This document shows, piece after piece, positions 1 through 35,554 of a stretch of DNA of 64,000 nt (position 1 is its first letter; each line of letters starts with the position of its first letter). The notes beneath the pieces were generated by a model. The model was not told the origin of the DNA and searched no databases. It saw only the letters and a list, made by a program, of their open reading frames with translations. A program made the translations under genes and the position numbers. Source of the DNA: Escherichia phage BAU.Micro_ELP-22. The stretch lies in sequence record OR699282.2; one strand, written 5' to 3'.

Positions 1-365
1 AGTAGGCAGAGGAAGTCTGCCGTACTTTGTAGTTTCCAAGCTCCTTTTCCATTTTTCAAATTACATCAAATGTAATCAAAAGTAATCACGCAATGATTAG
101 TACTGAATTATTACTTTCACCTTAATTTCAATTACCCCTTTACCCTTCGGGGTAAAATTCCATTACCCCTTGAGGCTCCAGCAAAAAGTTGGTTAGTACT
201 CCATCCTAAATCTCGATCCTAAAAATTTTGGAGTACCTATGAAATAAAAGTTGGATCTTCGAAAGTTGAAATTTACGTTGGGACGTTTATGATTTGTGGG
301 ATATAATGATGTTTGTAGTCGGGTAGTTCTCAAGAATATCAGTACTGAATGGTGAAAGAAAGTTA

Positions 366-393
366 TTGACATTATGATTCAGTACTGTATAAT
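366..393 (+). promoter_or_regulatory. sigma70-like promoter without downstream ORF
   Basis: TTGACA 366-371, 16-bp spacer with CAGTACTG, TATAAT 388-393. Confidence 0.45.
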
Positions 394-782
394 GTTCTAC
401 ATAGAGAGATGAGTTGCTGCGAACAATTCATTTACTCTACCTCCTGTCGTGAGACAGTACAGAAAAGATAGTTCCTCCTGTGGTGGTACATCTTTTTGAA
501 CCTCATATGAAAATCGTAATAACAGTACTGATATTAACAGAATGGTGTCAGTACTGATTTTAATCTAAATCATTATGCCACCAGCACAAGCTGGTGGATT
601 CCCTCTAACAGTATTCAGTACTACATGATAGTCTTCATCCTCCTAGGGTAACATAGTGAGGGCTATGATGGCAGTACTGAATACTCCCTTTCAAAAGATA
701 GATCTATGGTATAGTACTGACGGATTTTGGGTGTAGTTACCCTGGATGGATTTTGGGCGTAGATATGTCTAGCCCTCCAGAA

Positions 783-897
783 GTCTGGAAGTAAAGATGG
801 CTATCCATCTAGACGGCTAAACGGCTAGATTTCTGGATGGCTGGATGGCTAGACGTTTGGACGGCTAAACGGCTAGATGGTTACACGTCTGGAAGTA
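783..897. repeat. Short imperfect direct repeats
   Basis: ACGGCTAAACGGCTAGAT at 813-830 and 861-878; GTCTGGAAGTA at 783-793 and 887-897. Confidence 0.6.
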
Positions 898-1527
898 TAG
901 ACGGCTAAATCAAAATTTTATTTTGTTTTTTCCAATAGTTCCCCTACCGCGTGGGGATAGTTTCCCCGCAGTATCTGGTGTTAGATTTTTCTGAATCTGG
1001 AATCATTATCTTATAAACTGGGGGCAATGTCAACGACCTGGACGGATATTTTTAAAAATTTTTTCAGTACTGAATTTTGGGCGTAACTATGCACCCGGTG
1101 GGCTGGAGTCTTTCTCGACTTGATGGAACTATTATACAGTACTGGAAAAATAAAGCAATACCCTGGAAGCAAAAAAGTTTTAATTAATTTGCTTGCTATC
1201 CTGGGCCGGACTATGGTACTATAATTCAGTACTGAGAAAGTGCGTTTGCCTGCTAGGGTGCGGGAGTGTATCCTTTTTTTATATCTTGAATTTTGGGCGT
1301 AATTCCGCACCCTCTGGGGTTTCCGCTTTCTCGTGTCTATGTAGTAATTATACGCTTTTTCAGGATCAAGTCAATACCTAAAAACAAAATAATTGAAAAT
1401 AATTTAACGCGTTTAAACGGCCTGTAAAGCCCTGGAATGATTGGAATGGTGCAAATGTATAGCTTATGTGTATTAATGCGTTAGAATGCGTCTGAGGCCG
1501 TTTTTTGGGGTGTAGTAGTGATTTGGT

Positions 1528-1619
1528 TGATTCAGTACTGAATAATAGTACTCCTATATAGAAAGATAGTTCCCCTGGATTGATTCAGTACTGAATAATA
1601 GTACTCCTATATAGAAAGA
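1528..1619. repeat. Direct repeat, two copies of 39 bp
   Basis: TGATTCAGTACTGAATAATAGTACTCCTATATAGAAAGA at 1528-1566 and 1581-1619. Confidence 0.8.
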
Positions 1620-1645
1620 AAACTATTTTAAAAGTATTTGTAGAA

Positions 1646-1709
1646 AGTACTTGCACCGTACTGATAAAAGCGTATAATGTTTTACATCGAGAGCGGGAAC
1701 ACTTCCCGC
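1646..1709 (+). promoter_or_regulatory. Early promoter + stem-loop cassette (PeSL-like)
   Basis: AGTACT 1646-1651, -35 TTGCAC 1651-1656, -10 TATAAT 1673-1678, hairpin GCGGGAA-CAC-TTCCCGC 1693-1709. Confidence 0.7.
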
Positions 1710-1724
1710 TACACTTTAAAAGAG

Positions 1725-2096
1725 ATGAAAACGATGGCGACTCAAATCAATAAAATCATGCTTAACCTGGTAAACTTCCGCGATGAGATGAAAGGTCTTC
1801 CGGCTGAAACTGTAAAAATTCACATTGCAGCTTATCGGGAACTTATTGCAATGTTGCCGCTTAAGCGTGAACAATACGCCGCTACTTTGATGCTGGATTC
1901 AATGATCCATATAATGATCTCAAATGATTTGACGATGGTTTATCAGTATATGGGCGAAAATTTCGCGGTGTGTAGTAAGCCAGTACCAGGGATGGCAACA
2001 ACTGAGGAATTGCACGGCTTAAACTTAAAACAAGATGCATGGGATAATATGCCTCGTTTCCTGGTATGGGCTGACAGTGGCAAAATTTACAAATAA
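1725..2096 (+). CDS. hypothetical protein (123 aa)
   Basis: Track ORF 1677..2096 trimmed to first ATG after promoter/hairpin; SD-like AAGAG just upstream. Confidence 0.65.
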   Translation: MKTMATQINKIMLNLVNFRDEMKGLPAETVKIHIAAYRELIAMLPLKREQYAATLMLDSMIHIMISNDLTMVYQYMGENFAVCSKPVPGMATTEELHGLNLKQDAWDNMPRFLVWADSGKIYK

Positions 2097-2836: not shown

Positions 2837-3103
2837 ATGAATATTAAGTATTTTGCGACGCGTGAACAAGCTCGGATCGCCGCACGCCAGGACGGGGCAA
2901 CGTTTAAAGATATGGGCGTACAATCGGAACGTGGTAAACGTTGGGCCATTGTAAAGCGTAGTACCGCCAGATCATTACAGTACTGGTTAGCGGCCTTAAA
3001 AAGTCCCGATAGTGTATCGCGTCGAGTGGTAGAAATAAAGCTCGACCGAAAGGGCAACCGCGTGACCGTGTACCGTACTAAAAAGATTGCAGTACTTGAA
3101 TAA
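2837..3103 (+). CDS. hypothetical protein, early paralog family B (88 aa)
   Basis: Track ORF 2801 trimmed to ATG 2837; N-terminal YFATREQARIAAR..TFKDMG and C-terminal DRKGNRVTVY shared with 16025..16420. Confidence 0.65.
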   Translation: MNIKYFATREQARIAARQDGATFKDMGVQSERGKRWAIVKRSTARSLQYWLAALKSPDSVSRRVVEIKLDRKGNRVTVYRTKKIAVLE

Positions 3104-3105
3104 AA

Positions 3106-3169
3106 AGTACTTGCAAACTAAGTTTAAAAGCGTATAATGTTTTACATCGAGAGCGGGAACACTTCCCGC
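3106..3169 (+). promoter_or_regulatory. PeSL-like promoter cassette
   Basis: AGTACT 3106-3111, TTGCAA 3111-3116, TATAAT 3133-3138, hairpin GCGGGAACACTTCCCGC 3153-3169. Confidence 0.7.
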
Positions 3170-3190
3170 CTATAACCTGGAGTAATAAAA

Positions 3191-5428: not shown

Positions 5429-5492
5429 AGTACTTGCAATTAGTTTTCAGTACTGTATAATGGTTTACATCAAAGGGAGAAATGGTTCTCCC
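5429..5492 (+). promoter_or_regulatory. PeSL-like promoter cassette
   Basis: AGTACT 5429-5434, TTGCAA 5434-5439, TATAAT 5456-5461, hairpin GGGAGAAATGGTTCTCCC 5475-5492. Confidence 0.7.
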
Positions 5493-5511
5493 TGGTAATG
5501 AGGAAAATAAA

Positions 5512-5733
5512 ATGGCAAATATCACTACTCTTTCCCAACTGGAAGCACTGGTTAAATCTATGCGGGAACATGCCGACAAAATCGGCGTACAAGATCCAGC
5601 CGTTTGCTTCTGCGACGAATTGAATGATGATACCCTGGTAATAGCAGAAGTCCAGGACGTTTCTAACTATTCCTCGCGTTACACTGGCGGCGTAGCAAAT
5701 AAAGGTGACTTCTGTTTATACCTTACAAAATAA
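5512..5733 (+). CDS. hypothetical protein (73 aa)
   Basis: Track ORF 5482 trimmed to ATG 5512; SD GAGGAA. Confidence 0.7.
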   Translation: MANITTLSQLEALVKSMREHADKIGVQDPAVCFCDELNDDTLVIAEVQDVSNYSSRYTGGVANKGDFCLYLTK

Positions 5734-5768: not shown

Positions 5769-5797
5769 CAGTACTGAATCATTTAATAGACGGATCT

Positions 5798-5869
5798 CGG
5801 CACCCGGTGGGTTAGTGACTGTTTCGTCTTGATGTAGTAATTATGCCAGTACTGGATGCACTTGTCAAC
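5798..5869 (-). repeat. Repeated intergenic element, type B
   Basis: Reverse complement: TTGACA-17-CATAAT then ACATCAAGACGAAACAGTCACTAACCCACCGGGTGC. Confidence 0.55.
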
Positions 5870-5975: not shown

Positions 5976-6212
5976 ATGCTTGAACAAATCAAATCAACGT
6001 CTGCTAATGTAACGGGAACGGTATCACACTTTATTGGTGATGAATCGCGGGGCGTTCCCTATTGTGCTGTACATGTAAACACTGAGGGTAACTACTGGTT
6101 TACGGTTTACGGATCATATTCATTTGGACGGCCAGGGCATCAAAAAATTCTGGATAAAGTACAGCCAACGGGTAAAAATATCACGGCTGAAATGTTTTAT
6201 AAAAAATCATAA
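5976..6212 (+). CDS. hypothetical protein (78 aa)
   Basis: ATG 5976, SD AAGGAA. Confidence 0.7.
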   Translation: MLEQIKSTSANVTGTVSHFIGDESRGVPYCAVHVNTEGNYWFTVYGSYSFGRPGHQKILDKVQPTGKNITAEMFYKKS

Positions 6213-9122: not shown

Positions 9123-9395
9123 ATGAACGTTAATCAAGTACTGAATGAGATCGAAAGCATCATTAAACCGATGAAGCGTACTGATGCTATGTTAACACCG
9201 GAAGAATGCCGCCTTTATGAGCGTTACAGCGTCGAACAAGTCCAGGCAATGGCTATGGCTACCCCAGCCGTTAAACCGCCTGAGAATGCGTTACAGGACG
9301 TTACAGGGGATTATATCATTAATCCAGTACTAGGGAAGATGGCTGCAATCACCGAAGATCAACAAGACTACTTAAGCCAGTACTTAAAAGGTTAA
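9123..9395 (+). CDS. hypothetical protein (90 aa)
   Basis: ATG 9123, SD GGGG. Confidence 0.6.
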   Translation: MNVNQVLNEIESIIKPMKRTDAMLTPEECRLYERYSVEQVQAMAMATPAVKPPENALQDVTGDYIINPVLGKMAAITEDQQDYLSQYLKG

Positions 9396-9400
9396 TTAAT

Positions 9401-9610
9401 ATGCTTACTGTACAGGATAAGATCGACATCTTAAAGGTTAATATGTATGTGATTGATGCAGTACCTGGTAAAGTATTTGCATACGATGACACTACTGTAA
9501 GCAATTTCTACTATAGCCAGGACGTGGGGGATCTTTCTGTACAGTCGGTTATTGAAAACGTAGTTAATGCAGCGTATGAGCATTTACTTTCAAATAGTAC
9601 TTGCAATTAG
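9401..9610 (+). CDS. hypothetical protein (69 aa)
   Basis: ATG 9401 tightly following previous gene; last codons overlap the -35 of the next PeSL. Confidence 0.6.
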   Translation: MLTVQDKIDILKVNMYVIDAVPGKVFAYDDTTVSNFYYSQDVGDLSVQSVIENVVNAAYEHLLSNSTCN

Positions 9611-9660
9611 TTTTTAAACGCGTATAATGTTTTACATGAAGGGGAGAAATGATTCTCCCC
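9596..9660 (+). promoter_or_regulatory. PeSL-like promoter cassette
   Basis: AGTACT 9596-9601, TTGCAA 9601-9606, TATAAT 9623-9628, hairpin GGGGAGAAATGATTCTCCCC 9641-9660. Confidence 0.7.
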
Positions 9661-16790: not shown

Positions 16791-17033
16791 ATGATTACTT
16801 TAGAAAAACGTATCAAAGAAACTACATCGCTGGTGGAACTGTTAACAGTACTCAAATGTAAAACTACTCGGTTTAGTACACCGGACTTTATTAATATGGT
16901 TGATGTTAACGGTCGTTATCGTATTGCAGTAGAACAAGGCACGGCAAAAGTATTCAGTACTAAAAACACTAAGGAAGTGATTCACGCGGTTAGTGTGAAA
17001 AAAGTGGTTGCCATTGATAGTAAAGTACTGTAA
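16791..17033 (+). CDS. hypothetical protein (80 aa)
   Basis: ATG 16791, SD GGGGAG. Confidence 0.65.
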   Translation: MITLEKRIKETTSLVELLTVLKCKTTRFSTPDFINMVDVNGRYRIAVEQGTAKVFSTKNTKEVIHAVSVKKVVAIDSKVL

Positions 17034-17064
17034 GATAGTTTCATTAACTCAAGGAGAACATGCA

Positions 17065-17649
17065 ATGCGTAATTATACTAAATTCATCCGTACCCTGTCA
17101 GAAATGGAAACCAACAAAGAGATCCTTTCAGCTTGTCGGTTAGCTGGCCTGGAGATCATCGGTGCTGGTTCTTCCCGTATAGTTTTCGCTTTAAATGATC
17201 GGTTAGTGATTAAGGTCGCGAATTGTGATGCGGGTGTAGAACAAAATGAAACTGAATGTAAGGTATGGAATTTTTTAGACTATGACCGCCCTCAGTTGAA
17301 ACAGTACTTTGCAAAGGTGCATATGCATTTATGCGATCCTGATAATATGTTTATCGTTATGGATCGGTTGAGTACTGCAAGCAAAGGCAGTGTGAAGCAC
17401 GTAAACGCGTGCAATGAATTAAAGTACAATATTAAACGTAATGCAATCGAACGCCAGCACCGCTTTGCTGATGCACTACAACACGTTGATGATACATTAT
17501 CAACACTAACGATAAGAGATATCAGAAAACAGAATATCGGCCAGGATCGTAATGGACTTATTAAAGTACTTGATTACGGTTTAACCAGCAATATCTGGAA
17601 TCAGTACTATAAAAAGCGTGATGTGGCAGCAAGTAAGGTAACACGATAA
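17065..17649 (+). CDS. minimal Ser/Thr protein kinase-like protein (194 aa)
   Basis: Track ORF 17008 trimmed to ATG 17065 (SD AAGGAG, 8 nt); Gly-rich loop GAGSSRIVF, Lys in VIKVAN, catalytic-loop-like RDIRKQNIG, DFG-like LDYG. Confidence 0.65.
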   Translation: MRNYTKFIRTLSEMETNKEILSACRLAGLEIIGAGSSRIVFALNDRLVIKVANCDAGVEQNETECKVWNFLDYDRPQLKQYFAKVHMHLCDPDNMFIVMDRLSTASKGSVKHVNACNELKYNIKRNAIERQHRFADALQHVDDTLSTLTIRDIRKQNIGQDRNGLIKVLDYGLTSNIWNQYYKKRDVAASKVTR

Positions 17650-17667
17650 AAAAGATTAAAAAAGGGA

Positions 17668-17746
17668 TTGACTCCGGTCAGTCCCTTTGCTATTATATAT
17701 CCATTGAGAGATAACTCACTGACCCATAGGGTGCGGAAGTGTATCT
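17668..17746 (+). repeat. Repeated intergenic element, type A
   Basis: TTGACTCCGGTCAGTCCCTTTGCTATTATAT then CATTGAGAGATAACTCACTGACCCATAGGGTGCGGAAGTGTATCT. Confidence 0.6.
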
Positions 17747-17785
17747 ATTATATAAGTATTCAGTACTGAAAACTATTTGATAAAA

Positions 17786-17850
17786 AGTACTTGCATTGTA
17801 CTTAGAATCAAGTATAATGTTTTATATCGAGAGGGGGAAATGGTTCTCCC
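17786..17850 (+). promoter_or_regulatory. PeSL-like promoter cassette
   Basis: AGTACT 17786-17791, TTGCAT 17791-17796, TATAAT 17813-17818, hairpin GGGGGAAATGGTTCTCCC 17833-17850. Confidence 0.7.
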
Positions 17851-17872
17851 TGGTATATTAAGGAATAAAATC

Positions 17873-18094
17873 ATGACTACAATGACTTGCATTTACGCTT
17901 CCAATCTTCTGAATGATGCGGCCTTTAATGTTGATTCAGAATATCAATGTTATCGGGATGAAAATAAAAAAGTTTTTGTAGTTGATAATAATGGTTTCCA
18001 TATTGAATTGCAATCCGGTTTCACTGGTGTTGATGGTAAATCAGTATGGGGCGTACAGGATGATAAAGGCACATATCATTTTAAACGTAATTAA
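17873..18094 (+). CDS. hypothetical protein (73 aa)
   Basis: Track ORF 17777 trimmed to ATG 17873; SD AAGGAA. Confidence 0.7.
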   Translation: MTTMTCIYASNLLNDAAFNVDSEYQCYRDENKKVFVVDNNGFHIELQSGFTGVDGKSVWGVQDDKGTYHFKRN

Positions 18095-21255: not shown

Positions 21256-21505
21256 TGCGTAAAGGGATCTAGTACTGATTCAGAAAAAAGTCAAGGCGTT
21301 TTTTAAATTATGCGTTAAAAAAATGCATAGGTAATCCCTTGACTTTTTTGAAATAAAAGGGATTGGACTATGGCAAAATGCGTAGGGGGCTAAAGGGCGG
21401 GTAACCTTTAGCGACTTCGATAAAGGGGTATTACGAATAAAATGTTATTGATTTTTTATACGAATCGTATATTATAGGATTGATATTATTTTTAATGGAG
21501 TCCCT
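21256..21505. promoter_or_regulatory. Boundary intergenic region with nested inverted repeats; probable array promoter
   Basis: AAAAAAGTCAAGG (21283-21296) / CCTTGACTTTTTT (21337-21350); GCTAAAGG..CCTTTAGC hairpin near 21388-21412; TTGATT 21448-21453 plus TATTAT-like -10. Confidence 0.45.
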
Positions 21506-21703
21506 ATGCGTATTTTAACTAAAGAACAGCACCACGAAAGACTTATCAATAACATGGCTATGATAATGTATAAGTCCCATGACCGTGGTATTGCCTATAA
21601 GCGTGAATTAATTATGGCACTATTCATTGGAACTAACTTTCAGGAAAGGTATGTCAACGATTGGATTTGGTATTTAATTGAAGATATAACGAGTAAACTA
21701 TGA
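21506..21703 (+). CDS. small tandem family F1 paralog (65 aa)
   Basis: ATG 21506, SD GGAG; C-terminal FIGTNFQERYV..WI..LI..I core. Confidence 0.65.
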   Translation: MRILTKEQHHERLINNMAMIMYKSHDRGIAYKRELIMALFIGTNFQERYVNDWIWYLIEDITSKL

Positions 21704-21900
21704 AAATGCGTATTTTAAATAAAGAAGAATATCAATCACTGTTACGTAAAAACTTCACAAAGATTTATAATACAGACACACACGTAGAACGAATGGAGTT
21801 ATACCTTTTGATTACTTTGGGAACTAACTATCAGGAAAGATGGGTGATTCAATATATGGATACATTGAAAAATAAAATATTGTCCACGAGGAAACAATGA
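21700..21900 (+). CDS. F1 paralog (66 aa)
   Basis: ATGA stop/start overlap; LGTNYQERWV core. Confidence 0.65.
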   Translation: MKMRILNKEEYQSLLRKNFTKIYNTDTHVERMELYLLITLGTNYQERWVIQYMDTLKNKILSTRKQ

Positions 21901-22106
21901 AAACTATAACACGAACCCAATCATACGGTCTTATCTTGAAATACATGGACTTAATGGTGGATATCAGCAAAGACCTTCCTAAAACTGAAATTGAAGTTGC
22001 AAGAGCAGAGATCCGCATGTTGGCTGTACTGAACACAAACCATCAGGAAGATTATGTTGAAGAATGGATTCGATTTTTAATAGAAGATATTAAGAGTAAA
22101 CTATGA
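21897..22106 (+). CDS. F1 paralog (69 aa)
   Basis: ATGA overlap; LNTNHQEDYV core. Confidence 0.65.
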   Translation: MKTITRTQSYGLILKYMDLMVDISKDLPKTEIEVARAEIRMLAVLNTNHQEDYVEEWIRFLIEDIKSKL

Positions 22107-22318
22107 TTATTATAGAAAACTCATATCAATATACTGAACGCATCGCTGCCAGACAACTTGAAATCCTCATAATATACGAAGAGACTTCTGATTTAAACTT
22201 AGCCGAGGTATTGGAAAATGATATACTATTGGGTGCATTCTTAGGAACAGACTATCAGAAGTATTATGAGGAAAAGTATTTGTCATCTCTTGAGAAATAT
22301 ATCAGGAGCAAATTATGA
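22103..22318 (+). CDS. F1 paralog (71 aa)
   Basis: ATGA overlap; LGTDYQKYY core. Confidence 0.65.
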   Translation: MIIIENSYQYTERIAARQLEILIIYEETSDLNLAEVLENDILLGAFLGTDYQKYYEEKYLSSLEKYIRSKL

Positions 22319-22527
22319 TTTTTTTAACACCAGAAGAATATAAGAAACGTTTCAATTCCGCACAGGGTGAAATCTTACTTATATACCTTTCAAATGCAGA
22401 CCTTAACTTATCAAGGGTATTAGAAAAAGATTTACTTATGGGTGCATTCCTTGATACAGACTTTCAGGTGTATTATGTAGGGGAATACTTAATTGCACTT
22501 CAGAATTATATCAGGAGTAAACTATGA
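22315..22527 (+). CDS. F1 paralog (70 aa)
   Basis: ATGA overlap; LDTDFQVYYV core; close to 22103..22318. Confidence 0.65.
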   Translation: MIFLTPEEYKKRFNSAQGEILLIYLSNADLNLSRVLEKDLLMGAFLDTDFQVYYVGEYLIALQNYIRSKL

Positions 22528-22742
22528 AACATTTAAGTAACTCCGAGAAGAATAAAATTATCGTTGCTGCAATAAACAAATATTTTACACTTCCTCACAC
22601 AGAAGGTTTATGTGTAAGGGAACACAGGATAAACACCACCGATATACGCATGATGGCTGTACTGGGGACGAACTTTCAGGAAGAGTATGTTGTTGCACAC
22701 ATAGTTGCCCTCACTGATCTAATAAGGGACAAATGTAAATGA
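22524..22742 (+). CDS. F1 paralog (72 aa)
   Basis: ATGA overlap; LGTNFQEEYV core. Confidence 0.65.
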   Translation: MKHLSNSEKNKIIVAAINKYFTLPHTEGLCVREHRINTTDIRMMAVLGTNFQEEYVVAHIVALTDLIRDKCK

Positions 22743-22996
22743 AACACTTAACTGATGATGAATTTGAAACTATAATTCGTAAACTAACCCCCATCACAAG
22801 GATAGTCTACGGTGACCCCAGCCTTACATGGAACCAAATGCGAGCTAAAGTTAATGAGCTATGGTTGCTGTACTTTATGGGGACTCAATATCAAGATAAG
22901 TTTTGCACAGAATATATCGAACAATTAACGAATGTTATACAGGATAAACTAGATGATTATTTGCTCACAAAACATGAAGACTTTATCAGGAGTTGA
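22739..22996 (+). CDS. F1 paralog (85 aa) with C-terminal extension
   Basis: ATGA overlap; MGTQYQDKF core; stop displaced so the reading frame runs into the next gene. Confidence 0.6.
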   Translation: MKHLTDDEFETIIRKLTPITRIVYGDPSLTWNQMRAKVNELWLLYFMGTQYQDKFCTEYIEQLTNVIQDKLDDYLLTKHEDFIRS

Positions 22997-23225
22997 GTAT
23001 CAAACTGCCCTATTCTCTTTAATCCATGCCCTTAGAAAAAACAATGCCTTATATGGTGCACCTGAAGTGGATGTTATCAACGGTGAACTTTATCTTATGA
23101 AATTCATTGGAACAAACTATCAAGATCTGTTCATTCAACGATACTTATCAGCATTAAGAAACCAAATCCAATATAAAACCCAGAGAGCCAAAAAAGAATG
23201 GAATAAACAATGCGACACAGACTAA
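22953..23225 (+). CDS. F1 paralog (90 aa; start uncertain, alt ATG 22974)
   Basis: IGTNYQDLFI core. Confidence 0.6.
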   Translation: MIICSQNMKTLSGVEYQTALFSLIHALRKNNALYGAPEVDVINGELYLMKFIGTNYQDLFIQRYLSALRNQIQYKTQRAKKEWNKQCDTD

Positions 23226-23458
23226 ATCACAAAATGTATTGTAAACTATTACAGACACTGGCACAGAAACACTATGACACGGTATCTGGAATATTACCCT
23301 ATGATATCATGCGTTTACTTCACTGTGAGGCCGAGATGCTTGTACTGATGACAGGCACTGATAAAAACGCAATTGCCAAATCAATAGATATGTTCATCGA
23401 AGCACACTGCCAACACATGAGAACCGAAATCTGGAGGAAAGAGAATGATAATCCTTAA
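23210..23458 (+). CDS. F1 paralog, divergent (82 aa; start uncertain)
   Basis: MTGTDKNAIAKSIDMFI core variant. Confidence 0.55.
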   Translation: MRHRLNHKMYCKLLQTLAQKHYDTVSGILPYDIMRLLHCEAEMLVLMTGTDKNAIAKSIDMFIEAHCQHMRTEIWRKENDNP

Positions 23459-23660
23459 TGAGTATCAGTATCATTGGAGGTTACAAACTATCAAATCAAA
23501 AGTGTATAGTATTGTGTTAAACAAATCTATTGCACAAGAGGACAAATGTGTTATAATAGCTGAAATGAAGTTGGGTGCTTTCGTAGGGACAAACTATCAA
23601 AACATCTACACTGACGTATTGTTAAGTGCCTTACGTAACAAGGTGGTATCCAAAATATGA
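23445..23660 (+). CDS. F1 paralog (71 aa)
   Basis: VGTNYQNIY core. Confidence 0.65.
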   Translation: MIILNEYQYHWRLQTIKSKVYSIVLNKSIAQEDKCVIIAEMKLGAFVGTNYQNIYTDVLLSALRNKVVSKI

Positions 23661-23875
23661 GAAATTTACAAGGCTTTGAATACATCAGACTCCTGAAAAC
23701 ATGTGGAAGCAGAAGGAGAATGATATCAAGCGATAAGAGCATCCAAGCTAACCTTAAGCACGCACTAGTAACTGAACTCTATGTAGGTGCACTCTTAGGC
23801 ACAAACTATCAACAAATGTATGTAGATCTATGGATTGACGCTCTACAGAAAGAGGTTAAAAGTAAATGCAAATGA
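23657..23875 (+). CDS. F1 paralog (72 aa)
   Basis: ATGA overlap; LGTNYQQMYV core. Confidence 0.65.
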   Translation: MRNLQGFEYIRLLKTCGSRRRMISSDKSIQANLKHALVTELYVGALLGTNYQQMYVDLWIDALQKEVKSKCK

Positions 23876-24084
23876 TTAATTTAAGTAAAGACGAATTTTA
23901 TGTTATACTGGCGAAAACTTATCCAGCACGTAAGGCCGTTTATGATAGTCACATTATTGAACCCTCAAAGAAGTTGATTTTAGTAAATGAGATAAAGATG
24001 CTTTCAGTCTTAGGAACAAACTATCAAGAGAATGCTGTACTGATGTTAATTGATGCCCTCCAGAGAGAGGTTAAACGTAAATGA
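23866..24084 (+). CDS. F1 paralog (72 aa)
   Basis: LGTNYQENAV core. Confidence 0.65.
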   Translation: MQMINLSKDEFYVILAKTYPARKAVYDSHIIEPSKKLILVNEIKMLSVLGTNYQENAVLMLIDALQREVKRK

Positions 24085-24311
24085 AAATGATTAATTTAAC
24101 TTACCATGAATATCAAAAACGTTTAAATGCATCCAGAGATATAAGGATTCAAATATTCAATAACAAAAAATTGAAACCTGATACCAGAAGAATCAAAATC
24201 ATAGAAGCCGTGTTGTGTAACTTCCTAGGGACTAACTATCAGGAAGGTAAGGTAGAAAACTATCTTATAGAACTCATGAATAGTATTGAAAATAAATGTA
24301 AGGGTAATTAA
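24081..24311 (+). CDS. F1 paralog (76 aa)
   Basis: ATGA overlap; LGTNYQEGKV core. Confidence 0.65.
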   Translation: MKMINLTYHEYQKRLNASRDIRIQIFNNKKLKPDTRRIKIIEAVLCNFLGTNYQEGKVENYLIELMNSIENKCKGN

Positions 24312-24312
24312 C

Positions 24313-24552
24313 ATGAAAATGATTAAATTATCTCAAGCAAAATATAAAGAACGCCTGGTGAAAATTGCACCTGGACTTAATGAAATCCATCACGGAGAAG
24401 TCATTAAACACGGAAATAAGATGATTATGAAACTTGAGTTAAAGGTGGGTGCATTCATAGGAACAAACTATCAGGAGTATTATGTAGATGAATACATAAT
24501 CGCACTTAAGAGATACATTGGAAGAAAACTATATATACAAACTAAAGAATAG
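24313..24552 (+). CDS. F1 paralog (79 aa)
   Basis: Track ORF 24286 trimmed to ATG 24313; IGTNYQEYYV core; shares about 50-bp junction repeat with next gene. Confidence 0.6.
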   Translation: MKMIKLSQAKYKERLVKIAPGLNEIHHGEVIKHGNKMIMKLELKVGAFIGTNYQEYYVDEYIIALKRYIGRKLYIQTKE

Positions 24553-24581
24553 TATTGAAAATAAATGTAAGGGTATTTAAC

Positions 24582-24845
24582 ATGAAAATGATTAATTTAA
24601 GTAAAGATGAATATACCGAGCGTATGACAAAAATTACGCACAAACGTAATACAATCTATCACAACCCAGAAATTCAACACAGTAAGAAAATGATTATGAT
24701 GCGTGAGTTAAAGATGGGTGTATTCTTAGGAACAAACTATCAAGATACAGAAGTAAATCGCTTAATCGCGGAGTTACTACTGGAAATCAGAGGTAAGCTG
24801 TACTTTCATCAAATGACCCAACCACTGAGGTGTACTGATCGATGA
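24582..24845 (+). CDS. F1 paralog (87 aa)
   Basis: Track ORF 24555 trimmed to ATG 24582; LGTNYQDTEV core. Confidence 0.6.
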   Translation: MKMINLSKDEYTERMTKITHKRNTIYHNPEIQHSKKMIMMRELKMGVFLGTNYQDTEVNRLIAELLLEIRGKLYFHQMTQPLRCTDR

Positions 24846-25093
24846 ATGCGATGAATATTGTGAATAACATCAGATTAGCAGAAAGATTTGATAGAATTGG
24901 GGAAGCACTGAGAAGATACGATAAAGAATATGGTCATTTGAGCTTTTCTATAGAAAAGAGATATGAACTTGAAGCAGAGTTTAAAATGCAGAGTCTCTTA
25001 GGCACACAGTATCAAAACCAATATATTCAAACTTGGATTGATTGTTTAATCCAGACAATTTACGTAAGAAACATTAAATGCAAAATGAAATGA
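24842..25093 (+). CDS. F1 paralog (83 aa)
   Basis: ATGA overlap; LGTQYQNQYI core. Confidence 0.65.
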   Translation: MNAMNIVNNIRLAERFDRIGEALRRYDKEYGHLSFSIEKRYELEAEFKMQSLLGTQYQNQYIQTWIDCLIQTIYVRNIKCKMK

Positions 25094-25332
25094 TATACTT
25101 AACACATGATGAGTTAACAGAAAGACTAGATAAATCCAAAAGACTTACAAATAAACTTCCTCACAACACAAATCAAACCCCAGCAGAAAGGAGTGCAGAA
25201 GTTTTATTCCAAAGATTACCATACCTTCTTGGAACTGATAGGCAAGAGTATCACATTGAACGTATAATTAAATATCTCAAAATTACTATTAAGGAAAAAG
25301 TAAATGCAAATGAAATACTTAACAGACGATGA
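25078..25332 (+). CDS. F1 paralog (84 aa; start uncertain)
   Basis: LGTDRQEYHI core; close paralog of 25304..25555. Confidence 0.6.
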   Translation: MQNEMIYLTHDELTERLDKSKRLTNKLPHNTNQTPAERSAEVLFQRLPYLLGTDRQEYHIERIIKYLKITIKEKVNANEILNRR

Positions 25333-25555
25333 GTTAAAAGAACGACTAATTAAATCCAGAAAACTTACAAATCAACTTCCAAACGACACAAACAAGTCAC
25401 ATGCCGAAAGGAGTGCAGAAGTTTTATACATTCAACTCATGTACTTTCTTGGCACTGACAGACAAGAGTATTACATTGAAAGTATGCTTCGATATCTTAA
25501 ATTCTCTATAAAGGAAAAGATACATGCTCAAGAATTTAAAAATCCTAACAGTTAA
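25304..25555 (+). CDS. F1 paralog (83 aa; start uncertain)
   Basis: LGTDRQEYYI core; shares HAERSAEVL with previous gene. Confidence 0.6.
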   Translation: MQMKYLTDDELKERLIKSRKLTNQLPNDTNKSHAERSAEVLYIQLMYFLGTDRQEYYIESMLRYLKFSIKEKIHAQEFKNPNS

Positions 25556-25766
25556 TGAATATCATACGATTGTAATGAAAACTAATAGTGCAATTTCTAA
25601 AAAATCAAACCCCAAGTACATACTGGAACACACATTTGAAGAACGTCAATTAGCTTTAGTTGAAGCAAAACTTCTTGCACTCCTAGGAACAAACTATCAA
25701 GAAGAATACATCAGAAAACTAATATACCTTTTAACTAAACATATAAGAAAAAGAAAAAATGCATGA
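25524..25766 (+). CDS. F1 paralog (80 aa)
   Basis: LGTNYQEEYI core. Confidence 0.6.
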   Translation: MLKNLKILTVNEYHTIVMKTNSAISKKSNPKYILEHTFEERQLALVEAKLLALLGTNYQEEYIRKLIYLLTKHIRKRKNA

Positions 25767-25993
25767 AACACTTGACAGATGATGAACATGGGCTTATAGT
25801 AATGGATGTAATCAACATCGAATACAAAAAGTTGATACGCTACCGTTGTTATGAAGATAAGCAACTCGTTCTAGCAGAACAGAAGTTGTTTCGACTCTTA
25901 AACACAAACTTCCAAGCACAATACGAAGAATCGTATATGTACCTTTTGGCGAGGAAAGCAAAAAGAGATTATGAAAATTTTAAGCAAAGGTGA
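25763..25993 (+). CDS. F1 paralog (76 aa)
   Basis: ATGA overlap; LNTNFQAQY core. Confidence 0.65.
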   Translation: MKHLTDDEHGLIVMDVINIEYKKLIRYRCYEDKQLVLAEQKLFRLLNTNFQAQYEESYMYLLARKAKRDYENFKQR

Positions 25994-26186
25994 TTCAGTA
26001 ATATTACTTATAGAGAGTTCAAGTAAATTCTTAAACATAACACTGTCTGATATAGATGAAGATGACAAAGAAGTACTGAGAGCAGATTTAAGAGTACTGT
26101 TACATATCGGAACAAACCTACAAGAAGAATATGTAGAGTGCTACATCAATGAACTTAAAGAATTAGTACTGAGAACATGCAAATGA
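25971..26186 (+). CDS. F1 paralog (71 aa)
   Basis: IGTNLQEEYV core. Confidence 0.6.
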   Translation: MKILSKGDSVILLIESSSKFLNITLSDIDEDDKEVLRADLRVLLHIGTNLQEEYVECYINELKELVLRTCK

Positions 26187-28508: not shown

Positions 28509-28816
28509 AATTTAATATAGCAAAAACATCGAGTATATGTATTTTTGGTTATGCAGAAGAGTTAGGTGATATTGACATTCTTTTGTACAAAAAGGATGGT
28601 GTTATGCATTTCAAGTACCAGGATGAAGAGGCAGACAATTATCTTTTACCTAATTTAGTACAAATGCAGGAAGAGGAATTATTCCAGTACAGCTTAGTAT
28701 ACGACATTGATATTTGCACGATGCCAGTACTAATTAGTATTCAAAAAGTGATGCTCGATATGTATGATAAGCTAATACAAGGTATGTCAGGGAGGATCAT
28801 TGAAATTGACATATAA
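28505..28816 (+). CDS. F2 paralog (103 aa)
   Basis: Track ORF 28499 (GTG) trimmed to ATG 28505; EEELFQYSLVYD core. Confidence 0.6.
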   Translation: MKFNIAKTSSICIFGYAEELGDIDILLYKKDGVMHFKYQDEEADNYLLPNLVQMQEEELFQYSLVYDIDICTMPVLISIQKVMLDMYDKLIQGMSGRIIEIDI

Positions 28817-28838
28817 GAATATACCTAATGCATATGAA

Positions 28839-29012
28839 ATGAAGTACAGGGAGTTTATTAAAAATGTACACACCGATCCTTTTAATATCAAAATATCAGA
28901 GTTTGATGTATTATTTTATCTAGGGTCAATAGCACAGGATCAATGCGTTGATAAGCTCATATGGTCCTTGAAAATGGAGATACAATGCAGACCCAAATAT
29001 ATAAAAAGGTAG
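28839..29012 (+). CDS. F1-type paralog embedded in F2 array (57 aa)
   Basis: Track ORF 28800 (TTG) trimmed to ATG 28839; FYLGSIAQDQCV core. Confidence 0.55.
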   Translation: MKYREFIKNVHTDPFNIKISEFDVLFYLGSIAQDQCVDKLIWSLKMEIQCRPKYIKR

Positions 29013-29248
29013 ATTCTTTATTGTACGCTTCAAAGTACAGGGATTTTTGTTTACGAGGGGGAGAGGAAGATTTCTCTCTGAGATTATCTGAATTTAATAT
29101 GTTATTTTATCTTGGTACAAAAGATCAAGAAGATACAGTACAGAAATTTATCAAGCACCTTGAACAAAAAATTAATATGCAAATTTTGATGCTTAAGTTA
29201 CAGAATGAGATAAATGAATATGAATCCAGAAATAGTTCAGGATCTTAA
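28961..29248 (+). CDS. F1-type paralog embedded in F2 array (95 aa; alt ATG 28985)
   Basis: FYLGTKDQEDTV core. Confidence 0.55.
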   Translation: MVLENGDTMQTQIYKKVDSLLYASKYRDFCLRGGEEDFSLRLSEFNMLFYLGTKDQEDTVQKFIKHLEQKINMQILMLKLQNEINEYESRNSSGS

Positions 29249-29606
29249 AAAAGTAATATTTCTTTTGAATACCAGAAGTGAATTGTATACAGAGTTAAAA
29301 GAGATTAATGCATTTTATCAGAATTTTGTAATCCAAGAGATCAGTGATTTAATTACAGATGCATTATTTGAATTCTCGGAGAAATACAAAGGTTCAGAGT
29401 TCAGTGTTAAGAATGTTATTCGTCCAAGTGCAAGGAAAATTATATTATCACATTTTACATTTGACAATAAAGATTTATTCAGTCATAATCCAAGTACAGC
29501 TTTATATTTTATTCCTGATTCAGACAAAAATCATCCTATTCATTACGGATGGATTTTGTCATATATAGTACAAGGAAAGGAGTATCCTATTAAATGGAAA
29601 GATTAG
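29214..29606 (+). CDS. hypothetical protein (130 aa)
   Basis: Long ORF in array, no family core recognised. Confidence 0.5.
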   Translation: MNMNPEIVQDLKKVIFLLNTRSELYTELKEINAFYQNFVIQEISDLITDALFEFSEKYKGSEFSVKNVIRPSARKIILSHFTFDNKDLFSHNPSTALYFIPDSDKNHPIHYGWILSYIVQGKEYPIKWKD

Positions 29607-29754
29607 GGCGATTAGATTATTACACAATTAATACAAATTATTTGTTGCGTAATATAAAATCCGATTACAAAATATGGATAAAGAACAGAGATAGCATGTG
29701 TTATGAATTTTATTTAGATTATGCTATCAAACGATTTTTAAGAGAAGAACATTA

Positions 29755-29958
29755 ATGCAAAAGATTAATACGATAACATTAAATGCATTACAGGATTCAT
29801 TATTAGATAGTATTAAGATGTATTACAATATACATTTGAAGGGTGGTATTGATAATTACGATTATTATTTGAGTTTAATTACATTTGAGCACCTTTCAGT
29901 ACAGGACAGGATTTTACATCCTACAAATCCTAGGTATCCATCGATAGGTAAATTATGA
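29755..29958 (+). CDS. hypothetical protein (67 aa)
   Basis: ATG 29755; ATGA overlap with next gene. Confidence 0.5.
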   Translation: MQKINTITLNALQDSLLDSIKMYYNIHLKGGIDNYDYYLSLITFEHLSVQDRILHPTNPRYPSIGKL

Positions 29959-30503
29959 ATGAGATAGAGTTATTAGCACACAAGATAAGTACAATAATGC
30001 TTATCCTCAATAACAACCATCCTATATCGCATATAGATGGAATCCTGAGTCAGAGAACAGGTGGTAGTTTATATTTGTCCATAAACGCAGATATCGCAAG
30101 GAAATACATTGATATTGATGTTGAAATCGAATATGATACAACGGGGATTGTTGATGTAGGTGCATTAATCAGTTCAAATCCAGTATCAGCATCCCCATTG
30201 ACCAAAGGTGTTAGTACAGGATTCGAAGGGTATTTGTGGTACAATACCAATGATGATTATTTTATATATCAGCATTCCAATACAAATTATGATGAAGACA
30301 AATTTCAGTTCATAGACCCTTATGATGAAGCTGGCGTATTCCAACAATCATTAATCACAAAACCGCATGAGATGATGTATCTAATGTTATTCAGTACAAT
30401 GCATTTGAATTCATTAATTAAAGGTTTAAAATTTTATATTCAATTAAATTTAGTCCATGTAGTTTATGATTTATTAATGCAAGGATATAGTTATGAAGTA
30501 TAA
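29955..30503 (+). CDS. F2 paralog (182 aa), member of duplicated unit
   Basis: MNEIELLAHKIST N-terminus and LMQGYSYEV C-terminus shared with 30575..31081; VFQQSLI core. Confidence 0.65.
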   Translation: MNEIELLAHKISTIMLILNNNHPISHIDGILSQRTGGSLYLSINADIARKYIDIDVEIEYDTTGIVDVGALISSNPVSASPLTKGVSTGFEGYLWYNTNDDYFIYQHSNTNYDEDKFQFIDPYDEAGVFQQSLITKPHEMMYLMLFSTMHLNSLIKGLKFYIQLNLVHVVYDLLMQGYSYEV

Positions 30504-30574
30504 AATGTTGTATACCCCAAGATATGATTTATGTTGAATTAGAAGATGATGCATCCATCAATAGGTAATAATAT
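30493..30574 (+). pseudogene. Truncated, frameshifted remnant of a copy of gene 31071..31382
   Basis: ATGAAGTATAAAATGTTGTATACCCCAAGATATGATTTATGTTGAATTAGAAGATGATG matches start of 31071 gene but has 1-nt insertion and early stop. Confidence 0.6.
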
Positions 30575-31081
30575 ATGAATGAGATAGAATTATTAGCACA
30601 CAAGATTAGTACAGTAATGCTTATGCTCAAGAATAATCATTCTATGCATAAGTACATTTATATAGGTGATTTACGCATAGAAGATAGATATGATAAATTA
30701 TCGTTTTTGTTTAAAGATGAAAGTAATGCAAAAGTTTGTTTTGCAGCATTTGCCCAAGGCAATCCAGAACAAGCATCTCCTGTTATATACGAAAATAGTG
30801 AAGGGTATTTGTGGGTCAACACAAACGATTATTTCTTTTATGATTTGAAACAAAATGATGAAGTAGAAGCACGAATTGATTTAATTGATATTAGTTCAGA
30901 TTGTAGTTCTGAATTATTTCAGAAATCGTTATTATACAGTCCTCGTCAAATACATTATCTAAAGTTATTCAGTTCATTGTACGCGAATCCTTTAATTAAG
31001 GGTTTTAAATTTTATATCAAAATTCCGTACCTTTCAAACGTTTATGATATTTTGATGCAAGGATATAGTTATGAAGTATAA
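30575..31081 (+). CDS. F2 paralog (168 aa), duplicated unit
   Basis: Paralog of 29955..30503; ELFQKSLLY core. Confidence 0.65.
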   Translation: MNEIELLAHKISTVMLMLKNNHSMHKYIYIGDLRIEDRYDKLSFLFKDESNAKVCFAAFAQGNPEQASPVIYENSEGYLWVNTNDYFFYDLKQNDEVEARIDLIDISSDCSSELFQKSLLYSPRQIHYLKLFSSLYANPLIKGFKFYIKIPYLSNVYDILMQGYSYEV

Positions 31082-31382
31082 AATGATGTATACCCCAGAT
31101 ATGATTTATGTTGAATTAGAAGATGATGACGATGGGTGGAATTTGATTTATTCAAGAAGTTCAGGTTGGTACATGGCACATTTAAATGATTCGATAGTTA
31201 CAGATTATTTTGTAGATTTCAATACATTATCCGATGAAGAATTGTTCCAACAGCAATTAGTGATTGACACGGGTGGTTATGATGTCTTATTATTAAAAAA
31301 GATACAAAAAGCTGTTATTGATTTTAAGCCCATGATATGGCAAAGGAAATATTATGACCTCGAAGTACCATACCAGCAATGA
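31071..31382 (+). CDS. F2 paralog (103 aa)
   Basis: DEELFQQQLVID core. Confidence 0.6.
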   Translation: MKYKMMYTPDMIYVELEDDDDGWNLIYSRSSGWYMAHLNDSIVTDYFVDFNTLSDEELFQQQLVIDTGGYDVLLLKKIQKAVIDFKPMIWQRKYYDLEVPYQQ

Positions 31383-31920
31383 AATTCAGTACACCTACGC
31401 TAATGCCATCCTTATGGGACAAAAGTTAGCTTGTATTGTTGCAGCCTTATATAATGCCCAGAAATATCACAAGCGTCATTTCCACAAATGTATTGGTATT
31501 ATTCCATCGAAGTACAATACATATATTGCGTGCACGAGTCATTTTGATAAACGATTCAATACACCTGATACCCCAAATTCCCGTAGTGTTATTGGTCTTT
31601 TGGATTTCGCCCCTGGTGCTGTTATTGGAAAGAATGATTTAGAGTACGCATGGTATAATAAAAATGCCCCGTTAGTAATGGTAAAATATGATACAGAAAC
31701 GAACAAAACAATAGAGTACAATACATATAAATCAGAGGAAGAATTTTTCCAAGGTTCATTGCTTGTACCAGTGCGTTTGTTGTTTTATAATGTCCTTATT
31801 AGTACAGTACACAATAGTCCATTACACAAGAATCACAAAATTAATTTCAATTTTTGTGCTTATGCGATTGATGGTGTGTATGAGTGTTTAATGGAGGTAT
31901 TGAGTTATGAAGCTGAATAA
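31354..31920 (+). CDS. F2 paralog (188 aa; start uncertain)
   Basis: EEEFFQGSLL core. Confidence 0.6.
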   Translation: MTSKYHTSNEIQYTYANAILMGQKLACIVAALYNAQKYHKRHFHKCIGIIPSKYNTYIACTSHFDKRFNTPDTPNSRSVIGLLDFAPGAVIGKNDLEYAWYNKNAPLVMVKYDTETNKTIEYNTYKSEEEFFQGSLLVPVRLLFYNVLISTVHNSPLHKNHKINFNFCAYAIDGVYECLMEVLSYEAE

Positions 31921-32248
31921 TACATTTGATATTAATAAGTTAAGAGAATGGTTTTATAGTATTGAAATTGAAGCCATCCCGTATCATAGATATGAACAAT
32001 ATAATTTAACCAGTATTGATATCAGTGAGTTGTACGCGTATTATCAAAGTGCATTAGAGATGCATAAGTTATTTTTGAGTACAGATTTTGTTCTAAATTA
32101 CAATTTTGAGGAATTTAAAAATTATAATTTAGTACAGAAATATGTAGTAGCAAAGTACATGTACAATCAAGGAATCAAAGGTTGCATCGAATTCAATACC
32201 GTTCTTGTTTTAGTTGAGGTAATTTTATGCACCGCATGTCTGATTTAG
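31907..32248 (+). CDS. F2-like paralog, divergent (113 aa)
   Basis: ELYAYYQSAL variant core. Confidence 0.5.
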   Translation: MKLNNTFDINKLREWFYSIEIEAIPYHRYEQYNLTSIDISELYAYYQSALEMHKLFLSTDFVLNYNFEEFKNYNLVQKYVVAKYMYNQGIKGCIEFNTVLVLVEVILCTACLI

Positions 32249-32733: not shown

Positions 32734-32815
32734 GATATGGGCTTTTTTCGTTTTGGTATTGACATAGAAGACCAAAGCTGTTATCATGTGTATTCATTTT
32801 AAAGGAGAACATATA

Positions 32816-34480: not shown

Positions 34481-34481
34481 T

Positions 34482-34676: not shown

Positions 34677-34684
34677 GGTAAAAA

Positions 34685-35544: not shown

Positions 35545-35554
35545 GGAAAGTACA

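Follow-up and report, generated by a model that had tools for sequence, protein, structure and literature searches.

What does Escherichia phage BAU.Micro_ELP-22 keep in the first 1.7 kb of its sequence record (OR699282.2), where repeats, promoters, and hairpins are crowded together and no gene is evident? We analyzed 64,000 nt of this record (hereafter, the window), of which positions 1–1676 form the largest gene-free stretch. An earlier note on this DNA had taken the region to be non-coding and had offered a replication origin, a packaging site, or a cluster of small RNAs as its possible role. Here we report that the region is the first part of the virion DNA and bounds a direct terminal repeat (DTR) of 21.4 kb on the left, that its order of modules is shared by four genera of jumbo phages, and that one of these modules is an array matching the operator of the host repressor MetJ.

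The window comes from an Asteriusvirus genome (PBECO4/121Q group, RaK2-like jumbo coliphages), and 33 jumbo coliphage genomes of this genus (PBECO4, 121Q, phAPEC6, G17, and others) match window 1–1700 with 95–99% identity. Base 1 is the exact start of five independently deposited genomes, namely CRJP21, fEgEco12, E9.1, BF17, and vB_Ec-M-J. For fEgEco12, PhageTerm located the ends and restriction digests agreed with them; its repeat measures 20,993 bp (PMC13070987). The record of vB_Ec-M-J annotates bases 1–21525 as DTR, and that of Klebsiella phage Muenster also annotates a DTR, its length of 20,030 bp being set by PhageTerm. When the right end of fEgEco12 was mapped onto the window, the right boundary fell at 21407, and the DTR thus spans 1–21407. 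The placement of a virion DNA end at base 1 is based on this mapping and on the record starts of relatives. Together with a junction that is conserved across genera, these data bear out the packaging site among the roles proposed earlier. The other copy of the region lies at the inward-facing edge of the repeat on the right.

The cut junction itself was reconstructed from aligned ends and permuted genomes. In Asteriusvirus and Alcyoneusvirus it reads ...CAGTACTG-N8-14-CC(A/G)CTA^AGT...AAGTC, where ^ marks the cut, and in Mimasvirus and Eneladusvirus it reads ...CCGCTA^TATCTnTTCCTGAAGTC. Both flanks of the cut are conserved in 12 genomes of four genera and in three metagenomic contigs (UViGs). 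Written as reverse complement, the right boundary is GTCGCTA(A)^AGGTTACC in fEgEco12 and GTGCTA^AGCCTAAT in Muenster, which is suggestive of a CTA^AG core common to the left and the inverted right boundaries in these two genera. Permuted records, PBECO4 among them, show that the absence of genes extends about 260–300 bp to the left of the cut, and further TTCAGTACTG sites are found there (three in fEgEco12).

No open reading frame (ORF) in 1–1676 could be supported, as the earlier note had stated. The longest are 99, 62, and 59 amino acids (aa), and the ORFs of the region gain in-frame stops or frameshifts in A4, EJP2, or 121Q with one exception. This is a 44-aa ORF with a TTG start (1293–1427), which is open within the genus and lacks a Shine-Dalgarno sequence; in Muenster, the annotated ORF at this place uses another frame. 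Homology searches with Pfam and PHROGs, by which a conserved protein gene might have come to light, gave zero matches for the ORFs of 1–1676, and Rfam 15 covariance models and ARAGORN (for tRNA) gave zero matches in the region. The coding density above 90% that had been assumed elsewhere was an overestimate, since a crude ORF call gives 0.82 overall.

We compared the region with the leaders (first 1.8 kb) of Muenster (Alcyoneusvirus), Serratia phage BF and Erwinia phage pEa_SNUABM_12 (pEa12; both Eneladusvirus), and XbC2 (Mimasvirus). BLAST searches among distant relatives revealed two sub-segments that are conserved beyond the genus at a similar distance from the record start, and the first annotated coding sequence begins at 1304–1793 in Muenster, BF, XbC2, and pEa12. 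The same modules follow one another in the four genera of RaK2-like jumbo phages. In detail, the end with AAGTC at 13–17 is followed by a AAATCTCGA...AAAATTTTGGAGTACC block, a rightward sigma-70 promoter at about 260–390, a short-period array of about 130 bp, a TTTTCCAtTAGyTCCCCTtCCGCGT block with a hairpin whose stem varies among genera, a second rightward promoter with a transcript of about 50 nt, and one or two elements of a cassette family that we call H. An H cassette was found by an nhmmer profile 1002–1098 nt from the end in each genome examined, and it points back toward the end. Within the genus, identity in leader positions 1000–1500 is 0.93–0.97, compared with 0.83–0.91 in the downstream protein genes. 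The features are as follows.

1–17, plus strand: left physical end, with the terminase cut immediately 5' of base 1 and the conserved AAGTC at 13–17 (record starts, fEgEco12 mapping, junction conservation).
56–110, no strand: 10-bp repeats TCAAATGTAA (3.3 copies) and the palindrome ATTACAT-CAA-ATGTAAT (repeat search, sequence reading).
139–156, plus strand: 7-bp stem closed by a UUCG/TTCG loop, with ATTACCCCTT direct repeats on either side; not uniquely favored (z-score -1.9).
199–238, plus strand: conserved block CCATCCTAAATCTCGATCCTAAAAATTTTGGAGTACC, which aligns with XbC2 80–117 and BF 80–135.
366–393, plus strand: P1, an orphan consensus sigma-70 promoter (TTGACA-16-TATAAT, 12/12) with CAGTACTG abutting the -10 hexamer.
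578–597, no strand: back-to-back Chi sites, CCACCAGC-acaa-GCTGGTGG, forming an 8-bp hairpin (z-score -4.0; 0.006 Chi expected per strand in 1.7 kb).
724–761, plus strand: two of four ATTTTGGGYGTA motifs (the other two, at 1074 and 1290, lie at the distal ends of cassettes H1 and H2).
763–914, no strand: array of 19 tandem 8-bp MetJ-type met boxes with a majority consensus of exactly AGACGTCT (in-phase scoring).
921–970, plus strand: conserved block TTTTCCAATAGTTCCCCTACCGCGT, then a hairpin (948–968), directly after the array in all four genera.
1005–1033, minus strand: leftward promoter TTGACA-17-GATAAT, specific to Asteriusvirus.
1068–1158, minus strand: H1 cassette, with leftward promoter TTGCTT-16-TATAAT (CAGTACTG adjoining its -10), 5' hairpin GUC-GAGAAA-GAC, a second hairpin, and TACGCCCAAAAT.
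1193–1281, plus strand: P2 cassette, with rightward promoter (-10 at 1220–1225), a transcript of about 50 nt, and a terminator-like hairpin (1255–1274) followed by T7.
1283–1374, minus strand: H2 cassette, with leftward promoter TTGACT-16-TATAAT (11/12) and the same transcribed hairpins as H1; it converges on P2.
1376–1512, no strand: spacer with a within-genus identity of 0.94–0.96 and no significant fold.
1527–1619, plus strand: 53-bp tandem duplication, each copy with TTCAGTACTGAA and a second AGTACT; copy number polymorphic.
1646–1733, plus strand: early promoter of the family type, AAAGTACTTGCAC-16-TATAAT (1651–1678), with a 5' stem-loop (1692–1710, z-score -4.8) in the leader of the first gene (ATG at 1734).
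21407, no strand: right boundary of the DTR, mapped from fEgEco12 and lying outside the gene-free region itself.

All of the elements that had been read from the sequence earlier were recovered. The direct repeat reported at 1528–1619 is the 53-bp duplication, whose segments 1527–1566 and 1580–1619 are 100% identical; the one reported at 783–897 is an array with an 8-bp period at 779–906, which spans 763–914 when scored in phase. The orphan promoter at 366–393 and the degenerate copies of an intergenic element family (nhmmer) were also confirmed. The three segments said to contain GATTTTGGGCGTA are real as motif repeats, but the actual count is four copies of ATTTTGGGYGTA, at 724, 750, 1074, and 1290, all on the plus strand and with none elsewhere in the 64 kb (0.85 expected). 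The UUCG hairpin has its stem and loop but competes with another fold. The genome end at base 1, the excess of AGTACTGA, the Chi pair, and the met boxes had been overlooked. G17 carries a single copy of the 53-bp repeat, and a putative 1.15-kb insertion suggested by two-piece BLAST rows in this genome was rejected as an artefact of joining pieces onto downstream promoter copies; G17 merely lacks one 53-bp repeat. The spacer at 1376–1512 was also rejected as a structured RNA (z-score +0.4, both strands).

The array at 763–914 is the most distinctive module. A MetJ operator is defined as two or more tandem 8-bp boxes like AGACGTCT (PMC4239095, PMC3413123). Over 16 consecutive in-phase boxes, the array matches this sequence at 94 of 128 positions, or 0.73 per position, and the Escherichia coli operators score 0.75 (metJ/metB) and 0.69 (metF) over four boxes. 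Other 128-nt stretches of the window gave a mean of 32 matches (standard deviation 4.8, maximum 53). Like the E. coli operators, the array has 8-bp tandem units, CTAG junctions, the same consensus, the variants AGATGT.., GGACGTCT, and AAACGG.T, and the same level of matching; its boxes AGAAGTCT, GGACGGCT, AAACGGCT, AGATGGTT, and AGACGTTT are variants also found in natural operators. It differs from them in length, with 19 boxes here and up to 34 in the Aeromonas phage AhSzq-1, compared with four or five in the two operators examined. These results suggest that the array is a candidate operator to which MetJ of the host would bind. A MetJ encoded by the phage was rejected as the binder: a search of the window and of 50,697 phage records gave no homologue, matching only host-DNA records.

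Arrays of this type recur near genome ends. BF, XbC2, and GAP32 have 15–16 boxes in the same place, and the array lies 650–900 nt from the cut in three genera. A BLAST search with the window array found similar arrays in 85 phage records, usually near the record end. The hosts of 84 of these 85 records belong to Enterobacterales, Vibrionales, or Aeromonadales, the orders listed in the literature as having a MetJ regulon. The podovirus PGT2 (42 kb, phiKT-like) has a met-type array of at least five boxes 40–117 nt from its left end. Arrays near DTR ends are present in three phage families. A strict three-box met pattern retrieved one contig from IMG/VR, and its strictness makes it unsuitable for charting how widely such arrays occur.

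In Muenster and RaK2, the slot of the array, directly before the TTTTCCCATTAG block, holds palindromes that resemble Fur boxes. We scored these against the Fur consensus GATAATGATAATCATTATC; one example, GAGAATGATAATGATTCTC, matches it at 16/19 positions. In both phages, each H promoter is also followed immediately downstream by Fur boxes. At a threshold of at least 14/19, Muenster has seven boxes, RaK2 seven, BF one, and Repeat Region 3 of phage T5 four. No LexA box was found in the window leader at the threshold used.

The array is framed by promoters. P1 opposes the leftward promoters (the one at 1033, H1, and H2) across the met boxes, and P1 and P2 point inward. A promoter with at least 10/12 matches lies 261–414 nt from the end in the window, A4, Muenster, RaK2, BF, GAP32, and U19. 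P1 was rejected as the gene for a structured small RNA of about 100 nt with a terminator: the z-score is -2.7 here, but A4 retains neither the outer stem nor the T-run, and the EJP2 sequence is unalignable. Because the RNA fold downstream of this main orphan promoter varies even within the genus, selection seems to act on the promoters rather than on the RNAs. The P2 cassette is 67–70% identical to Muenster 1156–1383 and to RaK2, and is an inverted paralogue of H according to nhmmer.

On the minus strand, H cassettes consist of a -35 hexamer, a spacer ending in CAGTACTG that abuts the -10 (TATAAT or gCATAAT), a 5' hairpin with a GAGAAA loop, a GC hairpin, and TACGCCCAAAATTCA. The stem of the first hairpin covaries (CGC/GCG, GUC/GAC, GAC/GUC, CGAA/UUCG, GGAG/CUCC). 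Its covariation score of 0.415 was reached in none of 500 shuffles, which gave 0.106, and fell to 0.086 or less when the partners were slid. The second hairpin (ACCC/GGGT) is mostly invariant, with a single compensatory change, which leaves it a putative structure. Other members of the family occupy ordinary intergenic gaps of the repeat, mostly rightward ahead of genes. One member at window 5784–5855 is leftward between the rightward genes 5482–5733 and 5976–6212, and its RNA would be antisense to the upstream gene.

The window contains 255 copies of the palindrome AGTACT, which show no codon-frame bias and of which base composition predicts about 22; AGTACTGA occurs 101 times against 2.4 expected, 12 of them within 1–1676. 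AGTACT is denser inside the DTR (6.4/kb) than outside (2.8/kb) and equally dense in the leaders of Muenster, BF, and XbC2. Relative to -10 hexamers, the sites are most frequent at -27 and -7, and a spacing of 20–22 bp is preferred within pairs. Two blocks are free of it, at 21272–26071 (about 4.8 kb) and 28727–36999 (about 8.3 kb), where the surrounding DNA has 3–7/kb; the second block holds a run of similar-sized ORFs (168–207 aa, 29955–36106). We considered SlmA as a reader of AGTACT. The SlmA site GTGAGTACTCAC requires the flanks G1, T2, purine 3, A4, and G5 (PMC3020112). These flanks are present in one of the 255 sites, the phage consensus being TTCAGTACTGAA, and SlmA was rejected.

Exact GCTGGTGG sites lie on the plus strand at 590, 7694, 12027, 13490, 14758, 16829, 18238, 19817, and 20039 and on the minus strand at 578, 7632, and 60026. 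All nine plus-strand Chi sites fall within the DTR, where 0.12 are expected (about 75-fold enrichment), and none in the 42.6 kb beyond. Their sequence contexts are unrelated, some coding and some intergenic. Muenster has seven plus-strand and one minus-strand Chi inside its repeat and none in the next 30 kb (20031–50000). RecBCD recognizes Chi when approaching from its 3' side; the plus-strand sites would thus act on enzyme entering from the right physical end, and CCACCAGC at 578 is the first correctly oriented Chi for enzyme entering the left end. The pair at 578–597 is kept in EcMJ, G17, and 121Q. Its loop (586–589) is acaa here and ttgt in G17 and 121Q with both arms kept, the signature of a flip of the palindrome center. 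Dense oriented Chi confined to the terminally repeated part are likewise found in phage P1, where the Chi-dense redundancy has been proposed to drive RecBCD-dependent circularization (bioRxiv 10.1101/2021.07.08.451572). Phage P1 differs in that it packages by headful from pac, whereas the present phage has fixed ends, an exact repeat, and a back-to-back Chi pair in the leader. The Chi sites of the present phage may turn RecBCD into a recombinase by which the two repeats are joined.

The two parts of the window also differ in composition. G+C content is 0.387 in 1–21407 and 0.323 in 21408–64000 (0.358 vs 0.273 in Muenster). A 213-aa protein of the DTR (17008–17649) has a weak match to protein kinases (Pfam E-value 0.005, below the cut-off); the corresponding part of the Muenster repeat (17325–17909) is annotated as a putative protein kinase, and genes for a YeeU-like antitoxin and a YafQ-like toxin are also annotated in that repeat.

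The closest known parallel is Repeat Region 3 of phage T5, an untranslated 1.2 kb that has been proposed to harbor iss, the signal for an injection stop, and straddles the right boundary of the 10,139-bp left terminal repeat with an overrun of 270 bp (Davison, bioRxiv 10.1101/866236). Both regions are untranslated, dense in repeats, and laid over a DTR boundary, and the overruns are alike (about 260–300 bp here). Davison noted that the untranslated repeat regions of T5 are conserved better than the neighboring ORFs (bioRxiv 10.1101/866236), as is leader 1000–1500 here. The order is also alike, a cluster of host-factor sites being followed by a dispersed phage-specific short motif and then by the boundary. 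The text of the Davison preprint names none of Fur, LexA, and MetJ (bioRxiv 10.1101/866236). In the T5 record AY587007, Repeat Region 3 holds DnaA boxes, a Fur-like cluster with boxes of at least 14/19 at 9574–9640, and nine dispersed 14-bp phage-specific repeats spanning the boundary; the shear point of first-step transfer given by Davison (about 9618) lies inside this cluster. The T5 palindrome TACTGTATAAATATACAGTA ('palindrome D') resembles a LexA box, and this palindrome and the Fur-like cluster lie within record positions 9330–9640.

Met boxes themselves occur in T5-like phages. AhSzq-1 has about 28–34 boxes (2951–3180 of the stretch examined) in a large untranslated stretch beside gene A2, and the Vibrio phage Pontus has 20 (468–627) in a 1-kb gene-free record start, between DnaA/LexA-type boxes (three TTATCCACA DnaA boxes, LexA-like palindromes) and dispersed GGATTTGCACCT repeats. 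The window leader differs from Repeat Region 3 in lacking DnaA boxes (paired within the IRD'/IRC' inverted repeats in T5) and the IRC/IRD inverted repeats, and it bounds a 21-kb repeat on the left, with all genes of that repeat directed away from the leader. A T5-type iss is one at which DNA transfer pauses until the pre-early proteins A1/A2 have been produced, and two-step transfer is not known from RaK2-like phages.

Two other systems share parts of the layout. The left end of phage T7 has a 160-bp terminal repeat, the short-repeat array SRL, the promoters A1–A3, and a first gene at about 925; T7 genome entry is driven by polymerase, and polymerase pausing at the concatemer junction is needed for packaging. 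Both ends are gene-free and, ahead of the first gene, bring together a cut, a short-period array, and several strong host promoters. Here, however, the array is ten times further from the end and matches a host repressor operator, and the promoters converge rather than all pointing inward. T4-type phages have promoter-early stem-loop (PeSL) cassettes, reportedly described by Arbiol and colleagues in 2010. Like these, the H family consists of repeated intergenic units with a sigma-70 promoter and then a stem-loop, but the cassettes of the leader have no gene behind them, three point toward the genome end, and AGTACT palindromes occupy -27 and -7.

On balance, we think it somewhat probable that the region is a cis-acting DTR boundary and a docking platform for host proteins, with a MetJ filament as a barrier. 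These proteins would already be present when the phage DNA arrives. Host sigma-70 RNA polymerase would engage the gene-less cassettes that face each other, P1 and P2 inward and H1, H2, and the 1033 promoter toward the end. MetJ with its cofactor S-adenosylmethionine (SAM) would occupy the 19 boxes between the converging promoters, a length that would suffice for a continuous filament. The filament may act as a barrier between the promoters and the cut site, stopping polymerases, possibly also DNA transfer, at the repeat boundary and keeping the cut site clear, a task like the one proposed for the untranslated iss region at the T5 repeat boundary. In the sister lineages, Fur boxes would take over this job. 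The Chi pair within the Chi-rich DTR would make RecBCD stop degrading the incoming end and recombine the two repeats instead. Chi orientation alone suggests that the right end probably enters first; the second copy of the region would therefore be located exactly where T5 has its stop region.

Several observations weigh against this proposal. Unlike natural MetJ operators, the array overlaps no promoter (nearest hexamers at 393 and 1005), and there is no met gene. Position 6 of the box is G about as often as T (about half of the phage boxes), and because of this replacement the true binder could be another ribbon-helix-helix protein. XbC2 (OP292654) has Xanthomonas as its recorded host, which is not among the taxa listed with a MetJ regulon, so that either this host assignment or the MetJ reading needs checking. 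One defining feature of the T5 region is absent, the window leader having neither Fur boxes (none of at least 14/19 in window 1–1760) nor DnaA boxes. The DnaA box TTWTNCACA was found in none of the RaK2-like leaders, and T5 and AhSzq-1 have one each at 9/9. No homologue of T5 A1/A2 was found among ten DTR proteins scanned (the six largest and four small ones nearest the leader), whose only matches are to families without an assigned function. With seven recurrences in the window, the short cut-site core CRCTAAG cannot alone specify cutting, and for this reason we regard the CTA^AG likeness of the two boundaries as suggestive only. It is hard to see physically how a protein bound inside the cell stops DNA entry, and RecBCD is able to displace bound proteins. 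As a separate observation, the XbC2 leader is 83–91% identical to two metagenomic contigs, has a 16-box met array, and groups with Enterobacterales phages.

Two alternatives concern the array. It may be a packaging recognition array bound by a phage protein, either the terminase small subunit or a ribbon-helix-helix protein, in which case its met-box likeness would be convergence on a palindromic 8-mer and it would resemble the terminal short-repeat arrays of T7 or the heptad arrays bound by omega/ParG-type proteins. The fixed distances from the cut in three genera and from the end in PGT2 fit such a role, as do the position near DTR ends in three phage families and the consistency across lineages of G for T at box position 6. 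Three unrelated families would, however, need one shared DNA-binding specificity; a MetJ-like protein was found neither in the window nor in any phage record; and the Fur boxes in the same slot of sister lineages, with up to 16/19 matches to the host consensus, point to host factors. We consider a packaging array unlikely, and we give no greater credence to a decoy, in which thousands of boxes on the replicating DNA titrate MetJ (Fur in sister lineages) and thereby derepress methionine/SAM synthesis or iron uptake to the advantage of the phage. In favor of such a sponge are the 19 boxes per copy, the two copies per genome, and sites equal in quality to natural operators, and the exchange with Fur boxes fits a logic in which any abundant metabolic repressor would serve. 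Yet it needs neither a fixed distance from the repeat boundary nor a site between converging promoters, the Fur boxes right after each H promoter in Muenster resemble transcriptional control, and a single incoming copy cannot titrate early in infection.

The remaining alternatives concern the region as a whole. If its main products were small regulatory RNAs from the five cassettes, the DNA motifs would be incidental. The part of the earlier suggestion that stands is that five promoter cassettes lack ORFs and that one 5' hairpin covaries; the P2 transcript also ends in a hairpin and then a T-run, and the converging P2 and H2 RNAs could pair. The P1 RNA is where the suggestion fails, its fold and terminator being lost in A4 and EJP2. 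Weak z-scores (H2 RNA -0.4, P2 RNA -0.75), zero Rfam matches, and the same hairpin family ahead of ordinary genes, where it resembles a generic 5' leader, also argue against small RNAs, which we regard as quite unlikely main products. A T4-type replication origin, in which a persistent R-loop from the orphan promoter covers DNA that unwinds easily and the repeats serve as iterons, seems very unlikely. Orphan promoters do have AT-rich tracts downstream (915–935, 1040–1065), and portal-protein phylogeny relates RaK2-like to T4-like phages, but cumulative GC skew climbs monotonically through the region without inflection, DnaA boxes are lacking, the 8-bp repeats match a host repressor operator rather than iterons, and the region lies exactly at the packaging cut. 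That decayed cassettes and slipped repeats merely piled up at the genome end as non-functional debris is highly improbable; the 53-bp duplication is polymorphic and some hairpins are not significant, yet module order and distances from the end are kept over four genera and the leader is conserved more than the neighboring genes.

Long terminal repeats and ends in Asteriusvirus have been published, as have untranslated repeat regions at T5 repeat boundaries. In the literature searched, we found no description of the leader architecture and cut junction across genera, of met-box or Fur-box arrays at repeat boundaries of several phage families, or of the oriented Chi enrichment of the repeat, and no paper linking met boxes with phage genomes. 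The junction (CAGTACTG-N-CCRCTA^, AAGTC at +13) and the leader architecture allow RaK2-like genomes to be given their correct orientation and start, most of them being deposited permuted and without the repeat of about 21 kb. The architecture also helps to prevent spurious ORF annotation, as some records annotate 6–11 hypothetical proteins under the match to window 1–1700, although in several of them the match also covers the first real genes. A Chi-rich oriented repeat predicts reliance on host RecBCD, which is relevant to host range and engineering.

More tentatively, and with considerable doubt, we suggest that host repressor arrays (MetJ-SAM or Fur-Fe) may be a general and interchangeable component of DTR boundaries in at least three unrelated groups, namely RaK2-like jumbo myoviruses, T5-like siphoviruses, and phiKT-like podoviruses, where filaments of the host repressor would pause or gate the delivery or processing of the genome at the repeat boundary and would be the cis/trans mechanism long looked for. 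This would imply two-step entry in jumbo phages, the Chi-armored 21-kb repeat being delivered first with the right end leading. To our knowledge, the stop of T5 DNA transfer at 8% has been an open question since the 1960s, and the candidates to date rest on DnaA boxes. If repressor arrays do mark the boundaries of T5-like and RaK2-like repeats, the T5 stop would become testable by metJ and fur knockouts, by manipulation of SAM and iron, and by array deletions, and phages would physically use the metabolic sensors of the host on their own DNA before any phage protein exists.

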